Below the pieces are notes generated by a model, which was not told the origin of the DNA, did not search any database, and saw only the letters and a list, made by a program, of their open reading frames with translations. 33,887 bases of DNA, taken from positions 1-33,887 of the IMG/VR virus record IMGVR_UViG_2740892429_000002, one strand, 5' to 3'. A program made the position numbers and the translations under genes. Below are positions 265 through 19,449 of this stretch, one piece after another (position 1 is the stretch's first letter; each line of letters opens with the position of its first letter). The DNA comes from a virus. Lineage: Duplodnaviria > Heunggongvirae > Uroviricota > Caudoviricetes.

Positions 265-837
265 ATGTTTTGCGAAGAAAAAGTAGCTCAAATGGCTGCA
301 TACCTACTTCTTAAGCGAGGTGGGCGCATGGCATATCTGAAACTGATGAAGCTGCTCTATCTGTCTAACCGCAAGTCGATTTTGAAGCATGGCAGGATGA
401 TCGGCGAAGATAGCCTTTACTCTATGAAATTTGGACCAGTCATGTCGAATACGCTGAACTTGATTCGTGGTAAGGCTGAAGGCATTGGTGACTACTGGTA
501 CAACTTGATAGAGACGAACGGGCATGATGTGTTGTTGCGTTCAGATCCGAGGGAAATGGATGCAGACGAGGTCTTTGATGAGTTGAGCCGTGCAGATATC
601 CGGATTTTAGATGAAATCTATTCTCTGTATGGGCATATGAACCGATTTGATCTCGCAAACATGACGCATTTAGAAAGCGTTTGTCCAGAGTGGCACGATC
701 CCGGCTATTCCCGTAAGCCTATAGATCTGAAAGAAATGCTGATCAGTGAGGGTAAAAGCGAGGATGAGGCTAATCATATAATTGGCAAAATGGAAGAATC
801 TCAGAAACTTAAGGAATTTTCTTTGCAATTATCATGA
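265..837 (+). CDS. DUF4065/Panacea-domain protein (SocA/GepA-like), putative antitoxin
   Basis: 190-aa ORF with GAGG about 8 nt upstream of ATG. N-terminal motif AAYLLLKRGGRMAYLKLMKLLYLSNRKSILKHG...MKFGPVMSNTL matches the DUF4065 (COG3600) signature as I recall it. Stop overlaps the next start (ATGA). Confidence 0.65.
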   Translation: MFCEEKVAQMAAYLLLKRGGRMAYLKLMKLLYLSNRKSILKHGRMIGEDSLYSMKFGPVMSNTLNLIRGKAEGIGDYWYNLIETNGHDVLLRSDPREMDADEVFDELSRADIRILDEIYSLYGHMNRFDLANMTHLESVCPEWHDPGYSRKPIDLKEMLISEGKSEDEANHIIGKMEESQKLKEFSLQLS

Positions 838-1831: not shown

Positions 1832-2407
1832 TCATAATTCTGTGCTGGTGGCAGGAATTAATTTCTGCCAGATAGCGGAAACATATTTTGCCTGATGACG
1901 GGCATCGGCCAGGGCGTTGTGCCGTTCGCCATCGAAAGTCATGTCTATTTTGGGGTCGAATCCGATGGAACGCCCAAGCGTAACGATCGTGCGTACATCG
2001 TGGTCATTCCAGTATGCCCACGGGCAGATTTGTCCTGCTCGCTCATAAGCTCCACGTAAAATTACGTTGTCGAAGGTGGCCCCGTTACCCCAGACTTTTA
2101 AATATTTCGTATTGGCTGCGTGCCGGTTAATGAAATGATTTAGTTCTGAGAGAGCATCGCTGATCGACAAAGTATCATCAATACAGATTGCAGCTCGTGC
2201 TTCAGGGCTTTGTTTCAACCACCACAGGATGGTATCGCCGTCAGGTGTAGCTCCTTGCCCCATAGCACTTTCCAGGCTAACAACCGTATAGAATTCTTGT
2301 CCGATGTCTCCGGTTTCTGGAGTGAAGAACACCGCGCCAATGGAAACGATCGGTGCATCCTTATTTTTCCCCATCGTCTCAAGGTCGATCATTAAGTTGT
2401 TCATCAC
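1832..2407 (-). CDS. DnaQ-like 3'-5' exonuclease (DEDDh)
   Basis: 191 aa; IDLETMG near the N-terminus and HNALADA near the C-terminus are the exonuclease acid/His motifs. AGGTG RBS; ATG overlaps the upstream stop. Confidence 0.75.
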   Translation of the reverse strand: MMNNLMIDLETMGKNKDAPIVSIGAVFFTPETGDIGQEFYTVVSLESAMGQGATPDGDTILWWLKQSPEARAAICIDDTLSISDALSELNHFINRHAANTKYLKVWGNGATFDNVILRGAYERAGQICPWAYWNDHDVRTIVTLGRSIGFDPKIDMTFDGERHNALADARHQAKYVSAIWQKLIPATSTEL

Positions 2408-3219
2408 TTCACCTCTTGTGATGGTTTTGCTGCAAAATACTCGATACCTTTATCCCAGATAGATTTTATGGTCGACCACGTGACTGGCACTTTAATTTCA
2501 ATACGTCCGCTCCCGTCACAGGTATCGCAATCATCATCGCCAAAGCATTCCAGGCAGCTTATAAACGTAGTTTCTGAAAATTCACCGGATAGCACCCCCT
2601 TAGCGCCGTTCTCGGCTGTTAGTCTCTTCGGCACCATAACCCAACCATCCGGAGTTACCGGAGAGTTGCCAGACAGTGCGTTCTGCAATCGTTCCAGCTT
2701 AACGTATTCCTGAACCCTGTTTCCGTCGCACGCCTGAAGCCATTGCACAGCCTTTTGCGCATCAGTGTGAAAGGCACAAGTGCGACCGTCATCAAATTGC
2801 ATTTCGTAGAGGTCAGCAACCTGTTTAAACTGCGTTTGTGGCAACTTGTAAGCCCGGCTTGCAGGTACGGCACTATAGAGCATGGCAGCGCGGCAGGCAT
2901 TCCAGCCTGTAGCGTATGCAGCCGCTTTGCTGCTGCCTTCAACTGGCGCATCCTGCCAATACATTTCTTCCGGCACTACCGGCGCTGGAGGGACAGTGTA
3001 AAGCTGGTGCGTTCCATCAGGCAGCGAGTGACCTACATACTCACCGAACCCGTCAACACACATGCTCCCATCTTCAATAATGCATGACGCTACTGGCTCC
3101 GCTTCCAGCGATGCCAGAGCAATTTCATAAGCCCGGCGCTCAATATTGTCTCGAACGTCCAGGCTGCCTATGCGTTCTTTGATTTCTTTAATCATTTCTT
3201 TGTCGGTTAAAGTTGTCAT
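2404..3219 (-). CDS. hypothetical prophage protein with Cys-rich C-terminal region
   Basis: 271-aa ORF, GAGGA RBS 7 nt upstream, coupled to neighbours; C-terminal CLECFGDDDCDTCDGSG cluster suggests metal binding. Confidence 0.6.
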   Translation of the reverse strand: MTTLTDKEMIKEIKERIGSLDVRDNIERRAYEIALASLEAEPVASCIIEDGSMCVDGFGEYVGHSLPDGTHQLYTVPPAPVVPEEMYWQDAPVEGSSKAAAYATGWNACRAAMLYSAVPASRAYKLPQTQFKQVADLYEMQFDDGRTCAFHTDAQKAVQWLQACDGNRVQEYVKLERLQNALSGNSPVTPDGWVMVPKRLTAENGAKGVLSGEFSETTFISCLECFGDDDCDTCDGSGRIEIKVPVTWSTIKSIWDKGIEYFAAKPSQEVK

Positions 3220-3222
3220 GTG

Positions 3223-3510
3223 TTAGTCCTCATCCACTTCAACGCCATCTTTCAGCGTGATGCCGTGCCAATCATCAGCCCAACTGGTTAGCCCTGGCGC
3301 ATCAATGCTAGGCATATAAACGCTTGCAGTGTGGTAGCCCTTATCGTTATCAATGCTGGCAACGTGCTCGCCGTTGTATGCGCTCAGCGTGTCCAGGACG
3401 CTATAAAACTTTCCTCCGGCTGCCCTGAAATCCTTTACAGCCTTCACAAGGCGATTCCACGCTTTTTCCTGTTCTGGCGTCAGGTCGATTAATTCCTGCA
3501 AAGTTGCCAT
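3223..3510 (-). CDS. hypothetical protein (95 aa)
   Basis: Start moved to the Met at MATLQELIDL, which has GGAGAG upstream and sits 1 nt after the upstream gene's TGA. Confidence 0.5.
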   Translation of the reverse strand: MATLQELIDLTPEQEKAWNRLVKAVKDFRAAGGKFYSVLDTLSAYNGEHVASIDNDKGYHTASVYMPSIDAPGLTSWADDWHGITLKDGVEVDED

Positions 3511-3511
3511 A

Positions 3512-4297
3512 TCACTCTCCTTTGATGCGAATGCCAGCAAGCCAGTTTCTTATGCCGATATATTCAGCGTTCCTGAAACCGCTTTTTACATATACAAATG
3601 GCAAGCGAAGATTGTGACCATTGGCTGCCAGGTAGTCTTTACAACCCTGTTCGGTGAAACAGCAGGTAACGAATTCATCAATATCTTTCACAGCAACGCG
3701 CCGCCATTTTTCTGGTGGCTCTCGAAAGTTTTCATGAAGTAGTTCGAGACGACGACTTTGGCGTTTATTGGCTTCATTGCCATCTTCATCAACCCAGACA
3801 ATCCGGTCATAGTCATAATCAGCATCAACAACGATTTCGCGCTTTTGATACACACAAAACATAGGGTCTGACGTTATATGATTGTCCTGTGTTCGAATAT
3901 TTTCACCGATGATGCCAAACGAATCTGGTGCAGATTTTGTCTGCAACTCTGCTATGCGCTTACTTCCATCCGCGATTACTCCCTCGTAATACACACGCTG
4001 CTCGTTGAGTTTTGATTTTGTCTCCTCAAGCTCAACTCTCAGCTTCCCTACCGTTAGCGCAATATCCTCGTTCTCCTGGTCGCGGAGTTTGATGTATTGC
4101 TGTTTTTCGTCCAGCTCATCCAACAGCCCGGCGATAATGTCCACTTCCCGATGACGGATTTCTCGCTTAAACGCCGCTAAAGCTGCATCACAATCCTGTT
4201 CAGCGTTTGGACTGTCTGGCTTTTCCTGATACCACGCCAGAGTCGATTGATAGTTTTGTGCTGCCTTACGCAACGCCTGATAGTCAATCTCGCTCAC
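3512..4297 (-). CDS. hypothetical protein with coiled-coil N-terminal half (262 aa)
   Basis: The track ORF (3512..4645) has an implausible Arg-rich N-terminus. A GTG start preceded by AAAGGAGG lies inside it (VSEIDYQALRKAA...) and overlaps the stop of the upstream 82-aa gene. Confidence 0.55.
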   Translation of the reverse strand: MSEIDYQALRKAAQNYQSTLAWYQEKPDSPNAEQDCDAALAAFKREIRHREVDIIAGLLDELDEKQQYIKLRDQENEDIALTVGKLRVELEETKSKLNEQRVYYEGVIADGSKRIAELQTKSAPDSFGIIGENIRTQDNHITSDPMFCVYQKREIVVDADYDYDRIVWVDEDGNEANKRQSRRLELLHENFREPPEKWRRVAVKDIDEFVTCCFTEQGCKDYLAANGHNLRLPFVYVKSGFRNAEYIGIRNWLAGIRIKGE

Positions 4298-4532
4298 TGG
4301 TGCCTCCTTTACGGATCTGCGCTGCGATGCACGAAAAAAAAGACTCTCGCGTATGACAGTTAAGAGCTGGTGCGAACGCCGCGTTAAGAACGGCGGCATC
4401 ACAGCCGTCATCAATATAGAGCGCAATTTTTTTCTCCAGGCGCGCTTTGGCTTCCTGCAACTGCATACCCCGGCACGCACGCGGGATATACTCAGCAATT
4501 TGAGCGATAGATTTTTCGTTCTGTTTAAACAT
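4284..4532 (-). CDS. hypothetical small protein (82 aa)
   Basis: ATG overlaps the stop of the upstream 67-aa gene, and its own stop overlaps the downstream GTG start. Confidence 0.5.
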   Translation of the reverse strand: MFKQNEKSIAQIAEYIPRACRGMQLQEAKARLEKKIALYIDDGCDAAVLNAAFAPALNCHTRESFFSCIAAQIRKGGTSERD

Positions 4533-10681: not shown

Positions 10682-11496
10682 GTATGGAGCTGATGGTTAA
10701 AGCGATGAAAATTCGAGTGGGTAATCCATTGCGAAAACTGGTTCTGATCAAGCTGGCTGATAATGCCAGCGATCAGGGGGAGTGCTGGCCCAGCTACCAG
10801 CATATTGCTGACCAGTGCGAGATTAGTAAACGTTCTGTGATGAATCATATTGCGGCCCTTTGTGAGTCCGGGCTGGTAAAAAAAGTCACTCGGAAAGGTG
10901 AAAAAGGTAACTCAAGTAATATCTATCTCCTTCATCTGGATGGTGCAGGAGATTCACTAGGGGGTAGTGCAAATAATTCACTATCTGGTGCAGCAAATTC
11001 ACCAGGTAGTGCAGGAGTTGCACCAGGGGGTAGTGCAGGAGATTCACCCAGAACCAGTCACTCTTTTGAACCAGTCAAAGAACCAGTCAATGAACCAATA
11101 GCTGTTGGTGCATCAGTTGATGAGTCCGTGCGAGTTCGTTCAAACCGACCGGAATACTCTCCGGAGTTTGAGCAGGCATGGCTGGCATATCCCAAACGTG
11201 CTGGTGGCAATTCAAAATCTGCAGCCTTCAAAGCCTGGAAAGCCCGTTTGAATGAGGGAGTAAACCCCGAAACCATGCTGGAAGGTGTGAAACGCTACGC
11301 GGGCTGGGTATCTGCGATGGGTAACAGCGGCACACAATTTGTGAAACAGGCTGTCACGTTCTTTGGTCCGGATCGTCATTTCGAAGAATCCTGGGAAGTT
11401 CCTGCGGTATCTGCAGCCAGACGCGAGGACCCGTACTTCAAAGCCAGTTACGACAACGTGGACTACAGCCAGATCCCGGCAGGATTCAGGGGGTGA
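10678..11496 (+). CDS. replication initiator (O-like) with N-terminal HTH and low-complexity linker
   Basis: 272 aa, GGAGGTG RBS. N-terminal wHTH (LADNASDQGECWPSYQHIADQCEISKRSVMNHIAAL); Gly/Ser/Ala linker encoded by DNA iterons; conserved C-terminal domain. Confidence 0.65.
   Translation: MSMELMVKAMKIRVGNPLRKLVLIKLADNASDQGECWPSYQHIADQCEISKRSVMNHIAALCESGLVKKVTRKGEKGNSSNIYLLHLDGAGDSLGGSANNSLSGAANSPGSAGVAPGGSAGDSPRTSHSFEPVKEPVNEPIAVGASVDESVRVRSNRPEYSPEFEQAWLAYPKRAGGNSKSAAFKAWKARLNEGVNPETMLEGVKRYAGWVSAMGNSGTQFVKQAVTFFGPDRHFEESWEVPAVSAARREDPYFKASYDNVDYSQIPAGFRG
10943..11089. repeat. iteron cluster (candidate replication origin) inside the initiator gene
   Basis: GTGCAGGAGATTCAC twice (about 10943 and 11033), GGTAGTGCA three times, and GAACCAGTCA three times in tandem (11051, 11068, 11080). 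Confidence 0.55.
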
Positions 11497-11498
11497 TT

Positions 11499-11987
11499 AT
11501 GAGTCTTTTGAATGAAGTTAAGAAATTCATTGAAGCCCATCCGGGGTGTACTTCCGGAGACATTGCGGATGCTTTTGCAGGTTACTCACGACAGCGCGTT
11601 CTGCAGTCAGCAAGCAAGTTACGTCAGAGTGGGCGTGTGGCTCACCGTTGTGAAGGAGATACACGCAGACATTTCCCGCGCCTGACTGAGAGAGCGCAGG
11701 AGCCGGAACCACAACCAGTTCGTGAAACCAGACCTGTGCGCAATTTCTATGTCGGCACTAACGATCCCCGGGTGATTTTGTGCCTGACCCGCCAGGCTGA
11801 AGAACTGGAGTCTAGGGGCTTATACCGTCGTGCTGCAACGGTGTGGATGGCGGCATTCCGTGAAAGCCACTCCCAGCCAGAACGAAACAATTTTCTGGCG
11901 CGTCGTGAGCAGTGCTTACAGAAAAGCAGCAAGCGCGCAGCATCGGGTGAAGAGTGGTATCTGTCAGGGAATTACGTGGGGGCTTAA
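11499..11987 (+). CDS. PerC-family transcriptional regulator-like protein
   Basis: ATG after GGGGG. C-terminal AEELESRGLYRRAATVWMAAF...RREQCL matches the PerC/Pch pattern. Confidence 0.55.
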   Translation: MSLLNEVKKFIEAHPGCTSGDIADAFAGYSRQRVLQSASKLRQSGRVAHRCEGDTRRHFPRLTERAQEPEPQPVRETRPVRNFYVGTNDPRVILCLTRQAEELESRGLYRRAATVWMAAFRESHSQPERNNFLARREQCLQKSSKRAASGEEWYLSGNYVGA

Positions 11988-12640
11988 TGAGTAATAAATA
12001 TTGTCAGGCACTGGTGGAACTGCGGAACAAACCAGCCCATGAACTGAAGGAAGTGGGCGATCAGTGGCGCACGCCGGACAACATTTTCTGGGGAATTAAC
12101 ACTCTGTTTGGCCCGTTTGTTCTGGATCTGTTTACTGACGGTGATAACGCCAAATGTGCCGCGTATTACACGGCGGAAGATAACGCGCTGGCGCATGACT
12201 GGTCAGAACGTCTTGCGGAGCTTAAAGGTGCTGCCTTTGGTAATCCCCCATACAGCCGCGCCAGTCAGCATGAGGGGCAATACATCACCGGCATGCGTTA
12301 CATCATGAAACATGCCAGTGCCATGCGTGATAAGGGCGGGCGCTATGTTTTCCTGATCAAAGCGGCCACCAGCGAAGTGTGGTGGCCGGAAGATGCAGAC
12401 CATATTGCTTTTATTCGCGGGCGTATTGGTTTTGAACTGCCTGCCTGGTTTATCCCGAAAGACGAGAAGCAGGTGCCGACAGGCGCTTTCTTCGCTGGTG
12501 CTATTGCTGTTTTCGATAAGACCTGGAAGGGACCGGCAATCAGCTACATCGGGCGCGATGAACTTGAGGCATGTGGTGAGGCGTTTCTGGCGCAGGTTCG
12601 CCAGCAGGCGGAAAAACTGGTCAGGGAGATGGCGGCATGA
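11987..12640 (+). CDS. phage Dam-type DNA N6-adenine methyltransferase
   Basis: Start at MSNKYCQ (overlaps the upstream TAA, TAATG). Catalytic FGNPPYS motif. Confidence 0.8.
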   Translation: MSNKYCQALVELRNKPAHELKEVGDQWRTPDNIFWGINTLFGPFVLDLFTDGDNAKCAAYYTAEDNALAHDWSERLAELKGAAFGNPPYSRASQHEGQYITGMRYIMKHASAMRDKGGRYVFLIKAATSEVWWPEDADHIAFIRGRIGFELPAWFIPKDEKQVPTGAFFAGAIAVFDKTWKGPAISYIGRDELEACGEAFLAQVRQQAEKLVREMAA

Positions 12641-12963
12641 CGACGTTAACTCAATGCCAGCAGCAGGTGCTGGATATGCTGATTTCTTACCAGAAAGAAC
12701 GTGGCTTCCCGCCAACTAATCAGGAGGTGGCAACCATGCTGGGATACCGTTCAGTGAATGCAGCGGTGGAGCATCTTCGCGCACTGGAGAAAAAAGGCGT
12801 CATCACGATAAAGCGTGGCGTGGCACGGGGGATAACGCTTCATACCGCGGTGAAGGACGACGACAGCGAGGCAGCCGGGATTATCCGCGCACTGCTTGCC
12901 GGTGAGGAAAACGCCAGACTGCGTGCAGCCCACTGGTTACATGAGAGGGGCCTGAAAGTATGA
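12637..12963 (+). CDS. LexA N-terminal DNA-binding-domain-only protein
   Basis: 108 aa. MTTLTQCQQQVLDMLISYQKERGFPPTNQEVATMLGYRSVNAAVEHLRALEKKGVI parallels the LexA wHTH; there is no S24 peptidase domain. Confidence 0.7.
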   Translation: MTTLTQCQQQVLDMLISYQKERGFPPTNQEVATMLGYRSVNAAVEHLRALEKKGVITIKRGVARGITLHTAVKDDDSEAAGIIRALLAGEENARLRAAHWLHERGLKV

Positions 12964-14167: not shown

Positions 14168-15163
14168 GTGACCGTGAGAGCGCTACTGACCCCTGAAATT
14201 GCCCCGCGTATGGGGATCGTATTGTTCAGGCCCGGTTCAGAGCTGATGCCCCTGTTTATGCAGGGGCGTGTCCTGCTGGAGCCTGAGCCGGAACGTTATT
14301 CATCTTTCGCCAGTGGTGCCGTTCCGGCGGCATCACAACCGCTGGCGGATGATCCTGCCGTTCGGGCCGTGTTCCGCAATGAGGCAGTGATTCGTCGTGC
14401 TGGTGGAGTGGAATGTCTTGAACGCTGGTTACTTCGTGAAAAAGGTTGCCAGTGGCCTCATTCCGACTGGCACAGCGAGAACATGACCACAATGCGACAC
14501 ACGCCGGGCGCAATCCGTCTGTGCTGGCACTGCGATAACCAGCTGCGCGATCAGTTCACGGAACGGCTGGAATCAATGGCAACGGATAACTGTACCCGCT
14601 GGGTGTTGTCTGTTGTGCGTCGGGATCTCGGTTTTGATGACAGTCACGTTGTGACAATGCCGGAACTGTGCTGGTGGCTGATTCGTAATGACCTGGCGGA
14701 TGCCTTACCGGAAAGTGCAGCCCGTAAGGCACTGAGATTACCGAAGCCTGTTGTGCCGTCTGTCACCCGGGAAAGTGACCTTGTGCCTTCGGTTCCTGCC
14801 ACCAGCATCATCCAGGATAAAGCGAAAAAGGTGCTGGCGCTGAAAGTGGATCCAGAGTCGCCGGAGTCTTTTATGTTACGCCCAAAACGTCGCCGCTGGG
14901 TTAATGAAAAGTACACGCGCTGGGTTAAGACACAGCCGTGTGCATGTTGTGGAAAGCCTGCTGATGATCCCCACCACCTGATAGGTCACGGTCAGGGTGG
15001 AATGGGAACAAAAGCGCATGACCTTTTTGTGTTGCCTTTGTGCAGAAAGCATCACGACGAGCTGCATGCGGATACCGTGGCATTTGAAGAGAAGTATGGC
15101 TCCCAACTGGAGCTGATATTTCGTTTTATCGATCGTGCGCTGGCAATTGGCGTGCTGGCCTGA
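14168..15163 (+). CDS. DUF968-type nin-region protein with HNH-like zinc-finger C-terminus
   Basis: 331 aa. C-terminal [28 protein letters not shown]...CRKHHDELH. Start codon uncertain (GTG at 14168 or a downstream ATG). Confidence 0.55.
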
Positions 15164-15180
15164 TTTTGTGGAGAAAGTTG

Positions 15181-15546
15181 ATGCGTGATATTCAAATGGT
15201 TCTTGAACGTTGGGGGGCATGGGTGGCAAATAATCACGAGGATGTCACCTGGTCGTCTATTGCTGCAGGATTTAAAGGACTAATCCCTTCAAAAGTAAAA
15301 TCCCGCCCGCAATGTTGTGACGATGACGCGATGATCATTTGTGGGTGCATGGCTCGCCTGAAAAAGAACAACAGCGATTTGCACGATTTATTAGTGGATT
15401 ATTATGTAGGTGGTATGACGTTTATGGCGCTTGCCCGTAAACATGGGCGTTCTGATTGCTGGGTTGGGCGTTTATTGCAAAAGGCTGAAGGTGTAGTTGA
15501 TGGCATGTTAATGATGTTAGAAATTGAGCTAGAGATGGATCGTTAG
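15181..15546 (+). CDS. Q: late-gene antiterminator Q
   Basis: ATG after [43 protein letters not shown] matches the Q family of phage 82/DLP12 (QuuD-like) as I recall it. Confidence 0.75.
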
Positions 15547-15588
15547 AAGACCTCTTATTGAGGGGGTAATTGAATCAGTTTAATGTGT

Positions 15589-15620
15589 GGGGAGTCGATT
15601 TATTCTCCCCATTTTATTTA
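15589..15620 (+). terminator. intrinsic terminator downstream of Q
   Basis: GGGGAG-N10-CTCCCC followed by ATTTTATTTA. Confidence 0.5.
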
Positions 15621-15630
15621 ATTAGTTTAC

Positions 15631-16077
15631 TTAAGGTTTTAATTCATCAAGACGTTGTTGGATAGTGTTTTTGCTTGCGTTGTCTGTTATAGCCATTTGT
15701 TGTACTTGCCCCATTGCCATTTGAGTTTCCATCCACATATCGGCCCACACTTTTGTATCGTTATTAACTTGAGCGATAGTAAATCTGACTTTTGATACCG
15801 GGGTTGTTGAATAGGCATTTCCGATTAACATTTGTCCAAAAAAAGCAGAGCCGCCTTCCAGTTCTTTACCACATATAACACTGCTGTTATCCGCGTTGTA
15901 AATTATCAACCCTCTACTATTGCAGTAATTCACAAGGGCATCTTTGACTTTATCTTTTGTCGTATTTTGATAAACCCCCTCAGGTTTTCCTGATTGAGTT
16001 TTCTTTATCAATGGTACGGAAGAAGTACAACCTGAAATGATAGTTGCGCTAAGTAATAGTACAGTCATTTTATTCAT
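15631..16077 (-). CDS. lipoprotein of unknown function (moron, opposite strand)
   Basis: 148 aa with signal peptide and lipobox (LLLSATIISGC). Markedly AT-rich relative to its neighbours; transcribed against the flanking phage genes. Confidence 0.7.
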   Translation of the reverse strand: MNKMTVLLLSATIISGCTSSVPLIKKTQSGKPEGVYQNTTKDKVKDALVNYCNSRGLIIYNADNSSVICGKELEGGSAFFGQMLIGNAYSTTPVSKVRFTIAQVNNDTKVWADMWMETQMAMGQVQQMAITDNASKNTIQQRLDELKP

Positions 16078-16142
16078 GTTTCTTATCCATTGCTAAGGGT
16101 ATACCCACACAATTATTTTTATTGGAGATGAATAATCAACCG

Positions 16143-16170
16143 TTTACAATCGTAAAAAATCAAATATGCT
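16143..16170 (+). promoter_or_regulatory. candidate late promoter (PR'-like)
   Basis: TTTACA, 16-bp spacer, TATGCT, about 50 nt upstream of a terminator, giving a short 6S-like arrangement. Weak evidence. Confidence 0.25.
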
Positions 16171-16200
16171 GTTAAGAGTGGTTACTTCGCCACACAACTT

Positions 16201-16226
16201 AAACCCGCCGCTGAGCGGTTTTTTTT
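16201..16226 (+). terminator. intrinsic terminator (candidate tR')
   Basis: AAACCCGC-CGCTGA-GCGG stem followed by TTTTTTTT. Confidence 0.5.
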
Positions 16227-16324
16227 GTACCTGTAAACTTGGTGCAGTACAGTAAACACGCTGGTGGTCGTGAATACTGACTTTTTATCTTGCTGGCTTT
16301 TTAGACAAGAGTTATTGGTATGTC

Positions 16325-16552
16325 ATGTTAACCAGAAGGGAAAAAGACATGCTAAAACAGCAAGATATGACAGAAACCGCCGCCGCAGTCCTTCATTTCT
16401 TACCTGCTGACAAGTGGGTAACGCCACGCATGATGACGAGAACTACCGGAGTAAGCGAAGCCCGGTGCCAGTTAATACTGACTCAGTTAGTTCTGGCGGG
16501 TCTGGCGAAGGATAACGGCGGGTACGGGAATAAATTCAGACGCTGCCAGTAA
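16325..16552 (+). CDS. small putative winged-helix protein (75 aa)
   Basis: ORF just upstream of the methyltransferase; no strong SD. Helix-rich segment TGVSEARCQLILTQLVLAGL. Confidence 0.4.
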   Translation: MLTRREKDMLKQQDMTETAAAVLHFLPADKWVTPRMMTRTTGVSEARCQLILTQLVLAGLAKDNGGYGNKFRRCQ

Positions 16553-16702
16553 TGGCGGTTTCCTGCTGTGAAAATGGGCGGCTGGTGGGTGTTGGTAGCA
16601 CCTGCCAGCCATTCGCTCATGCTTACTGGTCACAAGCGAACCACGGCCCACTGCTTTAGCGCAAAAGCAGAGTGAGCCTACCAGAGTTACGCTTACTGAT
16701 CC

Positions 16703-17755
16703 ATGAAAAATACTGTAAAAATAAACAGTGTTGATTTAATCAACGCTGATTGCCTGCATTTTATTCAGTCCCTGCCTGATGATTCCATTGACCTGATTGT
16801 TACCGATCCGCCGTACTTCAAGGTGAAACCCAACGGCTGGGACAATCAGTGGAAAGGGGACGAAGATTACCTTAAGTGGCTGGACCACTGTCTGGCCCAG
16901 TTCTGGCGGGTGTTAAAACCTGCCGGAAGCCTTTACCTGTTCTGTGGGCATCGCCTGGCATCTGATATTGAGATCATGATGCGTGAACGTTTCAACGTGC
17001 TTAACCATATCATCTGGGCGAAGCCGTCCGGACGTTGGAATGGGTGTAATAAAGAAAGTCTGCGTGCATATTTTCCTGCCACAGAGCGCGTTCTGTTTGC
17101 TGAACATTACCAGGGGCCATATCGCGGCAAAAGTGACGGCTATGCGGCAAAAGAAAGGGAACTCAAACAGCACATAATGGCACCGCTGATATCGTATTTC
17201 AGGGATGCTCGTGCCGAACTGGGTATAACGACAAAACAAATTGCCGAAGCCACAGGTAAGAAAAATATGGTTTCCCACTGGTTTGGTGCCAGTCAGTGGC
17301 AGTTGCCGAATGAGGCTGACTATCGGAAGTTACAGGCACTGTTTTCCCGTATAGCGGCAGAGAAGTTTCAGGAACAACAACTGGAACAACCACACCACCA
17401 GCTGGTGGCATCTTATGATTCACTGAATCGCAAATATTCTGAATTGCTGGATGAGTTTAAATCTCTCCGGCGCTATTTCTCCGTATCAGTCTCCGTGCCT
17501 TATACCGATGTCTGGATGCATAAACCCGTTCAGTTCTACCCGGGGAAACATCCGTGTGAGAAACCGGCGGATATGCTCAGGCAAATAATCAATGCCAGTA
17601 GTCGACCAGGTGATCTGGTTGCTGATTTTTTTATGGGATCCGGTTCCACAATAAAAGCAGCAATGGCGCTGGGGCGTCGGGCCTTAGGTGTTGAGCTTGA
17701 GTCAGAGCGGTTTAACCAGACAGTGAAAGAGATAAACGAGCTGGTGGGGAAATAA
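16703..17755 (+). CDS. orphan DNA methyltransferase (N6-adenine/N4-cytosine class, DPPY motif)
   Basis: 350 aa. IVTDPPYF catalytic motif near the N-terminus and an FxGSGST AdoMet-binding motif near the C-terminus. No cognate restriction gene nearby. Confidence 0.8.
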
Positions 17756-17759
17756 TCTG

Positions 17760-17788
17760 GTGGCCACGTCAGGTGGCCTTTTTATTTC
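17760..17788 (+). terminator. intrinsic terminator after the methyltransferase
   Basis: GGCCAC-GTCA-GGTGGCC followed by TTTTTATTT. Confidence 0.55.
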
Positions 17789-17822
17789 CATTACACAGCA
17801 CCCGCATCTGCGAGGTGGGGTT

Positions 17823-18038
17823 ATGAAATCCATGGATAAGTTAACAACGGGTGTCGCCTATGGCACCTCAGCAGGTAGTGCCGGGTACTGGTTTTTACAG
17901 TTGCTCGATAAAGTCACGCCCTCACAGTGGGCGGCAATAGGTGTGCTGGGTAGTCTGGTATTTGGCTTGCTGACGTATCTGACAAACCTTTATTTCAAGA
18001 TTAAAGAAGACAAGCGTAAGGCTGCACGGGGAGAGTAA
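17823..18038 (+). CDS. phage-21-type pinholin (class II holin, dual start MKSM)
   Basis: [71 protein letters not shown] closely matches S21 as I recall it. GAGGTGGGG RBS. Confidence 0.85.
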
Positions 18039-18042
18039 TTCA

Positions 18043-18594
18043 ATGACTCAAAACTATGAACTGATTGTGAAAGGGATCCGCAATTTTGAGAATAAAGTTA
18101 CGGTAACTTTAGCGTTACGGGACAAAAAACGCTTTGACGGTGAAATTTTTGACCTGGACATCTCGCTGGACCGTGTTGAAGGTGCCGCGCTGGAGGTTTA
18201 TGAGGCAGCAGCCAGAAGGAGCATCAGACAGGTCTTCCTGGATGTTGCTGCTGGGTTATGTGAAGGGGATGAGCAGTCGCCGGAAAAGCGCCCCGTAATT
18301 TTAGATGCGAAGAATGTGTGGATAACCTACAAAGGAAAGCTACCGGGAAGAATTACTGGTTCTCTGAAGACGCCACCGACGGCATTGCGGTCAGAAAAAG
18401 ATGATATTGAATCGCCCATTGAAAAACTGGAGGGCAGAGTCGCTGATCTGAATAAAAAATTGTCGGTGCTGATCCCTTCTGAAGATGAAAAAAAACGCCG
18501 CGATGAGCAGTTTGCGGCGTTTTACGATTATTGCATTGAGGTTACTCGCAGGAATTTTGTGAAGATTTTTGAGGAGGGTAAATCTCTTCAGTAA
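18043..18594 (+). CDS. hypothetical protein (183 aa) inserted between holin and endolysin
   Basis: ORF starting 5 nt after the holin stop, GGGGAGAG upstream. No recognisable domain; charged, partly coiled-coil C-terminal half. Confidence 0.55.
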   Translation: MTQNYELIVKGIRNFENKVTVTLALRDKKRFDGEIFDLDISLDRVEGAALEVYEAAARRSIRQVFLDVAAGLCEGDEQSPEKRPVILDAKNVWITYKGKLPGRITGSLKTPPTALRSEKDDIESPIEKLEGRVADLNKKLSVLIPSEDEKKRRDEQFAAFYDYCIEVTRRNFVKIFEEGKSLQ

Positions 18595-18802
18595 GCTTAA
18601 TGGCGGACGCTGCAATTAATTCAGGAAGATCCGCAAGGTCATCTGTCAGTGGATATGATGAAAAATCGGCGGCAGTTCTGTTAAGAAGCGCTTTAACTAA
18701 TTCCTTTTCTTTCTCCGGCAACAAGTTGATTAGAGCTACGACTGCTTGCCTGAGTGCGATTAAATCAGCAAAAGTTTGTTTTGGTAGATTTGTGTAATCC
18801 AT
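18542..18802 (-). CDS. hypothetical acidic protein (86 aa), convergent with the 183-aa gene
   Basis: Start at MDYTNLPK with AGAGGTG RBS. Its 3' end overlaps the 3' end of the plus-strand gene by about 50 nt. Confidence 0.5.
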   Translation of the reverse strand: MDYTNLPKQTFADLIALRQAVVALINLLPEKEKELVKALLNRTAADFSSYPLTDDLADLPELIAASAIKLTEEIYPPQKSSQNSCE

Positions 18803-18915
18803 AGTCACCTCTGTGTTTATCAGATTGACATCCTCCTCCCGCCAGTGCCCATCACTGGCGAGGTAAGATTTAACATATCCGGGGATTTGAAGCCGATAAA
18901 TCCTGATAAATATCC

Positions 18916-19449
18916 ATGAGCGCAAAAATCAAATATGGCCTGTCGGCTGCCGTTCTGGCACTGATTGCCGTCGGTGCGCCTGCGCCTGACATTCTTGACC
19001 AGTTTCTGAATGAAAAGGAAGGTAACCATACCACGGCATACCGCGATGGTTCCGGCATCTGGACCATCTGTCGTGGTGCCACAATGGTGGATGGTAAGCC
19101 CGTCATACCGGGAATGAAGCTGTCGAAGGAAAAATGCGACCAGGTTAACGCTATTGAACGTGATAAGGCGCTGGCATGGGTGGAGCGCAATATTAAAGTA
19201 CCACTGACCGAACCACAGAAAGCGGGTATAGCGTCATTTTGTCCCTATAACATTGGCCCCGGTAAGTGTTTCCCGTCGACGTTTTATAAGCGGCTGAATG
19301 CCGGTGATCGTAAGGGTGCATGCGAGGCGATTCGCTGGTGGATAAAAGATGGTGGGCGCGATTGCCGCATACGTTCAAATAACTGCTATGGACAGGTTAT
19401 TCGTCGTGACCAAGAAAGCGCATTAGCCTGTTGGGGGATAGATCAGTGA
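18916..19449 (+). CDS. SAR endolysin (T4-lysozyme-like muramidase)
   Basis: N-terminal signal-anchor-release segment ([16 protein letters not shown]) and E-8aa-D-5aa-T catalytic triad ([18 protein letters not shown]). Confidence 0.85.

Follow-up and report, generated by a model that had tools for sequence, protein, structure and literature searches.

Why should a prophage carry two DNA methyltransferase genes and no restriction enzyme to go with them, and how might it keep the second of these genes under control? The question is raised by a stretch of 33,887 nt of viral DNA (IMG/VR record IMGVR_UViG_2740892429_000002; Caudoviricetes), referred to here, in its full length, as the window. A preliminary description made from the sequence had pointed to a Dam-type methyltransferase gene and to a second gene, coding for a methyltransferase with a DPPY motif, located in the late region downstream of a small open reading frame (ORF). 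The analysis reported here indicates that the window is probably an Escherichia coli lambdoid prophage with two self-protective orphan adenine methyltransferases, both of them already catalogued. It also revealed a conserved segment between the small ORF and the second methyltransferase gene that shows the covariation expected of a structured RNA. A more tentative reading, which we hold to be quite possible, is that this segment is an undescribed leader of about 140 nt belonging to the M.EcoGII family of methyltransferases, built around a three-way junction found from Escherichia to Gilliamella, able to adopt two folds, and serving as an off-switch for a toxic enzyme until late in infection. 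In the strongest version of this reading, the small winged-helix protein encoded upstream also joins the enzyme and changes its targets.

The late-region methyltransferase and its position in the prophage

The protein encoded by the second methyltransferase gene matched PF01555 (N6_N4_Mtase; E 2.3e-42) over residues 29–341. It contains DPPY at residue 35 and FMGSGST, an FxGxG motif, at residue 310; this is the motif order of the beta class, with a central target recognition domain (TRD). The protein could be aligned end to end with M.EcoGII, with 280 of 349 residues identical (80%; 90% positives), and was identical to Anc291, an active reconstructed ancestor, at 310 of 348 residues (89%); since both reference sequences were taken from the optical character recognition text of a supplement (PMC11551740), the true identities may shift by one or two residues. 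The alignment with M.EcoGII required two gaps, both outside the TRD (residues ∼160–237). All testable features place the enzyme in the M.EcoGII family.

M.EcoGII is a 349 aa beta-class enzyme from a prophage of E. coli O104:H4, as described by Murray et al. 2018 (PMC5778455). M.EcoGII and reconstructed ancestors are reported to methylate adenine in any context (PMC5778455, PMC11551740), and according to the latter (the SUPREM paper) Anc291 methylates DNA about 2.5 times faster than M.EcoGII in vitro. The preliminary description had considered the target specificities of both methyltransferases unknown. For the DPPY enzyme this is out of date: because it is so similar to M.EcoGII and Anc291, both of which are context-independent, it should, by close homology, methylate adenine regardless of the surrounding sequence. 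The activity of the enzyme can be predicted from M.EcoGII, and little changes for the methyltransferase finding as such.

PMC5778455 also reports that M.EcoGII methylates RNA, that it was characterised without its upstream gene and is highly active alone, and that it is not expressed in the lysogen, is deleterious if constitutively expressed and is thought to be switched on at induction. According to an EcoSal review, both M.EcoGII and Mu Mom are toxic and stay silent in lysogens. Several homologues behave in a comparable way: that of the ST131 strain EC958 was predicted to be inactive from reverse transcription PCR, those of O111 Shiga-toxin-producing E. coli carry the label ‘nonspecific’ and yield no motif in lysogens, and those in 95JB1 leave no methylation motif. 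As a reagent, M.EcoGII is in wide use, both to footprint chromatin and to label RNA.

The preliminary description had located the gene between a putative late promoter and the holin gene and had assigned it a terminator of its own, and both observations held (Table 1). The segment containing the candidate pR′ aligned with the region downstream of Q in phages Stx2a_WGPS2 and phiP27, in which stx lies further downstream on the same strand. The pR′/tR′ segment was homologous across E. coli, Hafnia and Morganella phages, all of which keep the hairpin and T-run of the candidate tR′. At the site matching the hairpin that follows the methyltransferase stop codon, the annotation of phage Ayreon also shows a terminator. 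From its position and from these homologies, the methyltransferase gene would sit inside a Q-dependent late transcription unit. Its silence in the lysogen would have a positional basis in the two flanking terminators and in an AUG that is not preceded by a Shine-Dalgarno sequence, and would agree with the literature on its homologues.

The arrangement is a common one. Along its full extent, the 3 kb stretch from Q to the holin gene shared 99% identity with phages PhiR40_1 and PhiR55_1, and the methyltransferase part was also found in mEp460, cdtI, SfV, Ayreon and Stx2c phages, annotated just as ‘DNA methylase’. The segment 16250..17800, which covers the small ORF, the leader and the methyltransferase gene, matched 1457 of 5426 complete E. 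coli genomes, with at least 80% of it covered in 1120 of them. The gene order Q, small ORF, methyltransferase, then stx or holin, was shared by Stx2a_WGPS2, phiP27, Hafnia phage yong2 and Morganella phage IME1369_02. Stx2a_WGPS2 and phiP27 both have the small ORF and methyltransferase gene placed after Q and before the ileZ/argO tRNA genes plus stx2. The Stx2a_WGPS2 enzyme is 93% identical to M.EcoGII and its gene is preceded by the same small ORF and leader. The module would lie in the late operon, at the position that stx occupies in Shiga-toxin phages. Both methyltransferases of the window are standard lambdoid prophage genes, and represent already known biology.

The RNA leader and the small winged-helix gene

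The ∼150 nt that separate the small ORF from the methyltransferase ATG were strikingly conserved in Escherichia, Hafnia and Morganella phages. In 41 species-level comparisons with the window, this spacer had a median nucleotide identity of 87%, as against 74% in the coding sequence of the methyltransferase and 57% in the 300 nt upstream; in 39 of the 41, the spacer was more conserved than the coding sequence. An exact-motif scan of IMG/VR gave at least 121 occurrences in at least 120 DNA stretches. In all of the 118 listed occurrences not cut by a contig end, the methyltransferase ATG was found at +130 to +133 after the motif. Among the IMG/VR occurrences listed, the leader was seen only upstream of M.EcoGII-family methyltransferase genes. 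The window contains a single copy. One IMG/VR contig (L152) showed two full copies on the minus strand (287..431 and 3272..3416; 127 and 128 bits) about 3 kb apart, and both of its motif occurrences were scored as followed by a methyltransferase match, which suggests tandem or duplicated late-region modules.

A five-helix model of the leader (Table 1) was examined for compensatory changes. In a MAFFT alignment, 16 of its 35 base pairs had changed on both sides, as compared to 8.0 ± 1.6 in shuffled alignments and 4–8 in controls in which the pairing partners were slid. A covariance-model alignment that also included Gilliamella gave 24 of 35 pairs, against 11.1 ± 1.9 for shuffles and 7–10 for slid controls; this alignment was fitted to the five-helix model and hence leans towards it. 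The column pair 55/83 in P3 was represented by CG 20, AU 9, UA 8 and UG 4 times, while P1 was 100% paired, with two independent compensatory changes. G-U pairs, frequent in P2 and P5, indicate that the leader RNA corresponds to the plus strand. The covariance model recovered the P1-P2-P3 core upstream of Gilliamella methyltransferase genes, where blastn detected no similarity.

The leader is equally compatible with an alternative fold, close to the minimum-free-energy fold, in which the P2 stem is extended (AUGGGC/GCUCAU) and GGCCCAC pairs with GUGAGCC. The two folds are mutually exclusive. In the five-helix fold, P5 covers nucleotides -12 to -7 before the AUG; the alternative takes up the 5′ strand of P5, so that the region before the AUG is freed. 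Because of these two folds, and of the position of P5 in one of them, the leader is most likely a cis-regulatory element that gates translation or stability of the methyltransferase mRNA. Such a switch might be operated by the winged-helix protein, by a metabolite, by RNase III or, as autoregulation, by the methyltransferase; M.EcoGII also binds and methylates RNA. The winged-helix protein cannot be the only partner of the leader, as the leader accompanies the methyltransferase gene in loci from which the winged-helix gene is missing.

Other explanations for the spacer were considered. The P2 hairpin was rejected as an intrinsic terminator in E. coli. The leaders of Xenorhabdus are shorter and terminator-like, with a hairpin followed by a U-run, and a P2 hairpin with a U-run was also present in two Proteus loci (P. 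hauseri and P. cibi). Those of Photorhabdus are shortened too, and keep window-like sequence after the hairpin. A leader peptide was also discarded, since the frame opened by an invariant ATG ends after seven codons in many of the sequences and diverges in the rest. No match to the leader was found in Rfam 15 at E ≤ 1, nor was there any at this threshold on either strand of the Q-to-holin region (15000..18600). Literature searches turned up no description of the leader, and term searches, together with sections of PMC5778455 and PMC11551740, turned up no mention of the winged-helix gene or of the leader in the M.EcoGII papers. The structured leader and its frequent winged-helix companion appear to be undescribed, and are worth a modest follow-up.

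The small ORF upstream of the leader had been described as a possible winged-helix protein of 75 aa. The frame from ATG 16325 is indeed open, but the conserved start is the in-frame ATG 16349, eight codons further downstream, which gives a protein of 67 aa. Most homologues, and the coding sequence annotated in PhiR40_1, begin at this position, and a Shine-Dalgarno-like AAGGG lies ahead of it (16336–16340). The proposed fold, in contrast, found support. An AlphaFold2 model built with 20 homologues reached a pLDDT (predicted local distance difference test) of 87 and shows three helices and a beta-hairpin wing; according to this model, the protein does fold as a stand-alone winged helix. Helix 3, the putative recognition helix (RCQLILTQL..AGL), is invariant while the rest falls to about 50% identity. 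No match was found in Pfam or NCBIfam. The protein belongs to phrog_331, a family of unknown function, and a few homologues are labelled as TrmB-family or DprA-like winged helices. The matches listed in fold searches with the model were Zalpha domains and generic regulators. Zalpha domains are compact winged helices of about 65 aa, with a conserved Asn and Tyr in helix 3 and a Trp in the wing (as in ADAR1 Zalpha). DpnI was not among the matches listed in two fold searches, and an identity as a DpnI-like reader of N6-methyladenine (m6A) was not retained. An inverted-repeat search found no convincing operator palindrome for the protein.

The linkage between the winged-helix and methyltransferase genes is real, although not obligatory. 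Of 76 informative loci (one genome per species), 56 contained the winged-helix gene, as did 110 of the 121 IMG/VR loci listed. It was absent from the other 20 of the 76, which keep the methyltransferase gene, and 12 of these 20 matched the leader by blastn. Some loci of Trabulsiella, Enterobacter, Kosakonia, Buttiauxella and Kluyvera have leader and methyltransferase gene but lack the winged-helix gene, which is also absent upstream of the Gilliamella methyltransferases whose junction core was found by the covariance model. Another small ORF sometimes fills its slot. In two loci without the winged-helix gene (L015 and L018; 2558..2797), a cysteine-rich 79 aa ORF with a zinc-ribbon-like CxxC...CxxC...CxxC pattern lies upstream of the leader and methyltransferase gene, and in two others (L010 and L014) the slot is taken by a 117 aa ORF, so that the gene occupying the slot before the leader varies.

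The Shine-Dalgarno and start region of the small ORF (AAGGGAAAAAGACA; 16336–49) is complementary to the upstream segments TGACTTTTTATCTT (16278–91) and TGGCTTTTT (16294–302), and an invariant block, AGAGTTA, lies between complementary segments in the region 16278..16349. Given this complementarity, the translation start of the small ORF may also be occluded by a hairpin.

The Dam-type enzyme and the surrounding genes

The product of the first methyltransferase gene matched PF05869 (E 9.7e-46; 156 bits against a cut-off of 28.1) and the TIGR01712 equivalog ‘phage N-6-adenine-methyltransferase’ (255.6 bits against a cut-off of 97.05), and contains LDLFT at residue 46 and NPPY at residue 86. It was 98–100% identical to its counterparts in the best phage matches listed (PhiR40_1, SfV, mEp460, Stx2a_WGPS2 and Stx2c phages). 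GATC specificity is, for this enzyme, a weak prediction made at the level of the family. The observed/expected ratio of GATC in the window (0.80) was uninformative in this respect. The longest stretch of the window free of GATC (2387..4314; 1.9 kb) lies over Ead/Ea22-like early-left genes. M.EcoGV has been described as the ‘Dam homologue’ of O104:H4. It was not retained as an identity for the Dam-type protein, as it is described as highly similar to an MT-A70 (PF05063) enzyme of phage PA8, for which no similarity with the window protein was detected. Lambda DNA is Dam-methylated only in part during rapid replication (PMC11037411), which would plausibly explain why a phage encodes a Dam enzyme.

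The Dam-type gene is flanked upstream by a gene for a PerC-like activator (YfdN-like; 11493–11987) and downstream by one for a 108 aa protein with a LexA DNA-binding domain and no S24 peptidase (12637–12963). Stop and start codons overlap at both junctions (11493..12963), which suggests that the three genes form one translationally coupled operon. The LexA-like and RusA neighbours of the Dam-type gene are also annotated in PhiR40_1.

Table 1. Positions of the methyltransferase genes, the leader and its helices, and the late-region features in the window
Feature	Positions	Strand	Basis or remark
Phage Dam-type N6-adenine DNA methyltransferase, 217 aa	11987..12640	+	PF05869/TIGR01712; nin-like region
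Q-type late antiterminator	15166..15546	+	PF06530, E 2.1e-51; marks start of late region
Lipoprotein-like ORF, 148 aa	15631..16077	-	Signal peptide, lipobox-like LLSATIISGC; phrog_3152 (function unknown)
Candidate late promoter pR′	16143..16170	+	TTTACA, 16 nt, TATGCT; consensus scan; putative function
Candidate tR′ terminator	16204..16227	+	Short GC stem, then T8; terminator scan
Winged-helix ORF, 67 aa	16349..16552	+	Stand-alone small protein
Structured RNA leader of methyltransferase mRNA, 138 nt	16565..16702	+	Covariation, conservation
Leader helix P1	16575-79/16646-50	+	Closes three-way junction with P2 and P3
Leader helix P2 (long hairpin)	16580-91/16599-610	+	Five-helix model
Leader helix P3	16613-17/16635-39	+	Five-helix model
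Leader helix P4	16651-57/16664-70	+	Five-helix model
Leader helix P5	16672-77/16691-96	+	3′ strand ends 6 nt before AUG
M.EcoGII-family beta-class N6-adenine methyltransferase, 350 aa	16703..17755	+	PF01555 and identity to M.EcoGII
Terminator-like hairpin and T-run	17762..17787	+	Terminator scan; directly 3′ of methyltransferase stop, before holin
P21-type holin S	17823..18038	+	PF04971, E 3.6e-35; coding sequence limits after PhiR40_1; start of lysis cassette

The Q antiterminator is related to phage 21 Q (structures 6P18 and 6JNX; E 7e-9). The lipoprotein-like ORF is antiparallel between the Q gene and the candidate pR′, has promoter-like sites at 16139–16112 and 16096–16067, shares the hairpin 15589–15608 with the end of Q, and looks like a moron. 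No tRNA genes of the kind found downstream of pR′ in Stx phages were present in the window. In the interval 18043..18925, an ORF of 183 aa with a DUF1327 domain lies between the holin S and lysozyme genes, its end overlapped by a 127 aa ORF on the opposite strand, and the lysis cassette is broken up by accessory genes. An ORF with a SocA/Panacea antitoxin domain (265–837), near the prophage's left end, overlaps a 139 aa ORF with no family match (834–1253), and the two may be a toxin-antitoxin pair.

The other ORFs, scanned individually to about 20.7 kb, had ordinary phage functions (CI-like repressor, CII, Rha/Ash, replication protein, RusA, KilA-N, DUF968, lysozyme and Rz, besides the PerC-like and LexA-like proteins above), and none of them matched a restriction endonuclease or a PADLOC defence protein. 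The term orphan that the preliminary description had given to the two methyltransferases is, for this reason, correct within the window.

Alternatives, proposed role and relation to known systems

The preliminary description had also seen a controller-like arrangement in the small ORF and the methyltransferase gene. A C-protein-like transcriptional controller that binds an operator and times or limits methyltransferase transcription would agree with the location of the winged-helix gene, directly upstream and on the same strand, with the frequent linkage of both genes, and with a DNA-binding-type fold whose putative recognition helix is invariant. The protein, however, has no HTH_3/XRE match and its fold differs from that of C-proteins, there is no restriction gene among the scanned ORFs, and a search for inverted repeats gave no C-box-like palindrome upstream, with the arms that it did find lying in the transcribed region. 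Further, the interval from the small ORF to the methyltransferase gene contains no promoter-like site, so both appear to depend on pR′ and Q, and about one quarter of the species-level loci that keep the methyltransferase gene do so without the protein. The small protein is therefore not a C-protein, and a role as controller is considered unlikely. The winged-helix protein could instead combine with the methyltransferase into a holoenzyme, as its specificity or targeting subunit. Activity in vivo would then differ from the non-specific one of M.EcoGII cloned alone, with RNA or particular DNA as possible targets. There is a precedent in phage PA8, where the winged helix-turn-helix partner PNB-2, encoded upstream, redirects an MT-A70 enzyme to 16S rRNA (PMC10810198). 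The linkage conserved across genera, and the fact that the work on M.EcoGII was done without the upstream gene on an enzyme that also methylates RNA, point in the same direction. The PA8 pair is not homologous to the window proteins, though, M.EcoGII is highly active on its own, many loci have the methyltransferase without a winged-helix gene, and a structured spacer of 150 nt separates the two genes instead of a coupled junction; taken together, a holoenzyme is rather unlikely.

That the spacer is conserved as a leader peptide, a DNA-level site or a junction for the recombination of phage modules is a different matter. The invariant ATG opens a frame, MGGWWVL..., with two Trp codons, and mosaic boundaries are common in lambdoid phages. 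Against this, the frame stops after seven codons in at least 19 of 47 sequences, diverges in the others and is not preceded by a Shine-Dalgarno sequence, the compensatory changes in 24 of 35 pairs are well above shuffled and slid controls, the G-U pairs fit the plus strand only, and the junction core was recovered in Gilliamella, beyond the reach of blastn. A basis other than RNA structure is, accordingly, most unlikely. The preliminary description had suggested that the methyltransferases serve anti-restriction or the epigenetic manipulation of the host. Some prophage methyltransferases, such as M.EcoGIII, do reprogram host gene expression, and the Dam-type gene shares its operon with a PerC-like activator. 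However, lysogens carrying close homologues of the late enzyme show no extra motif, the late gene is bracketed by terminators behind a Q-dependent promoter, and GATC is already methylated by the host. Since close homologues show no transcription, and lysogens bear no methylation motif due to them, it is very unlikely that either enzyme is expressed in the lysogen to alter host gene expression epigenetically. Anti-restriction is the accepted reading for the M.EcoGII family (PMC5778455, PMC12707154). The position of the genes and their homologues suggest that the likely role of methylation is the protection of progeny DNA against restriction.

The family memberships, gene order, linkage and covariation described above can be combined into a scheme for expression timing, anti-restriction and leader function. 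In the lysogen, transcripts from pR′ would end at tR′ and the toxic methyltransferase would stay off. After induction, RNA polymerase modified by Q would read through into the methyltransferase gene, and the M.EcoGII-type enzyme would be made alongside lysis and packaging functions and would methylate replicating progeny DNA. Virion DNA would then resist those many Type I, II and III restriction systems of the next host that are blocked by m6A. The Dam-type enzyme, which would be made earlier from the nin-like region, would most likely top up GATC methylation on fast-replicating phage DNA. Together with the methyltransferase gene, the winged-helix gene and the leader make up a conserved module, in which the leader would gate the methyltransferase mRNA.

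Several points weigh against parts of this scheme. The divergence of about 20% from M.EcoGII could, in principle, have altered the specificity of the late enzyme. The Dam-type enzyme is 24% identical to phage T1 Dam over 138 aa (T1 Dam itself matches PF05869 with E 1.7e-70), and this is the reason why its GATC specificity is a weak inference. In E. coli, where no U-tract follows the P2 hairpin, the leader cannot be explained simply as a second terminator. An obligatory activator role of the winged-helix protein is excluded by the persistence of leader and methyltransferase gene without the winged-helix gene in Gilliamella and in about one quarter of the species loci. Finally, protection would not be unconditional, because heavily m6A-modified DNA is a target of m6A-dependent Type IV enzymes (PMC11037411).

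The proposed silence in lysogeny bears on how the prophage might be studied. The preliminary description had suggested comparing the methylomes of a lysogen and a cured strain, and took the absence of a new motif as a refutation. With a family that is silent in lysogeny this is the wrong comparison: the absence of a new motif in lysogens would probably be observed without refuting enzyme activity, and DNA from induced virions would be the informative material. The conserved leader and small partner protein offer concrete access to the question of how phages hold such a dangerous enzyme in check before turning it on, and they also bear on whether the specificity of M.EcoGII-type enzymes in vivo equals that seen in vitro. 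If the strongest reading of the leader were true, the non-specificity of M.EcoGII would partly reflect its study without the winged-helix partner.

Among known systems, the late enzyme resembles M.EcoGII and M.EcoGI of the E. coli O104:H4 C227-11 prophage. It shares with them the beta class (PF01555), a length of 349–350 aa and the DPPY-TRD-FxGxG order, and with M.EcoGII the lambdoid prophage location, the lack of a restriction partner and the full-length similarity; it diverges from M.EcoGII by about 20% in sequence. The Dam-type enzyme is, like T1 Dam and HP1 Dam, a small, phage-encoded orphan of PF05869/TIGR01712 with NPPY, although its sequence is distant from that of T1 Dam. T1 Dam and HP1 Dam methylate GATC. 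The controllers of Type II restriction-modification systems are also small nucleic-acid-binding proteins encoded upstream of a modification gene, but C-proteins are of the HTH_3/XRE type, bind C-boxes and time a restriction gene, and the window locus shows none of these features. In PA8, the gene for a prophage ‘DNA adenine methyltransferase’, M.EcoPA8orf6770P, is likewise preceded by a small winged-HTH gene, that of PNB-2. The PA8 enzyme, of the MT-A70 type (PF05063) with DPPW, is encoded in the early-left region; lysogens express it, and its target is 16S rRNA (PMC10810198). BLASTP found no similarity between the PA8 pair and either window methyltransferase or the winged-helix protein (E 7–16), and no homology of the small ORF to PNB-2 was detected. 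By analogy with PA8, the winged-helix protein could alter the targets of the methyltransferase. A final parallel is com-mom of phage Mu, also a toxic, late DNA-modifying enzyme with a small protein gene upstream and a leader structure over the translation start. Com is a zinc-finger protein whose gene overlaps mom, whereas the winged-helix gene lies 150 nt away and is dispensable in many loci; there is no homology, and Mom does not methylate. As an analogy, a toxic late enzyme combined with a small protein and a structured leader would work like Mu com-mom while being unrelated to it.

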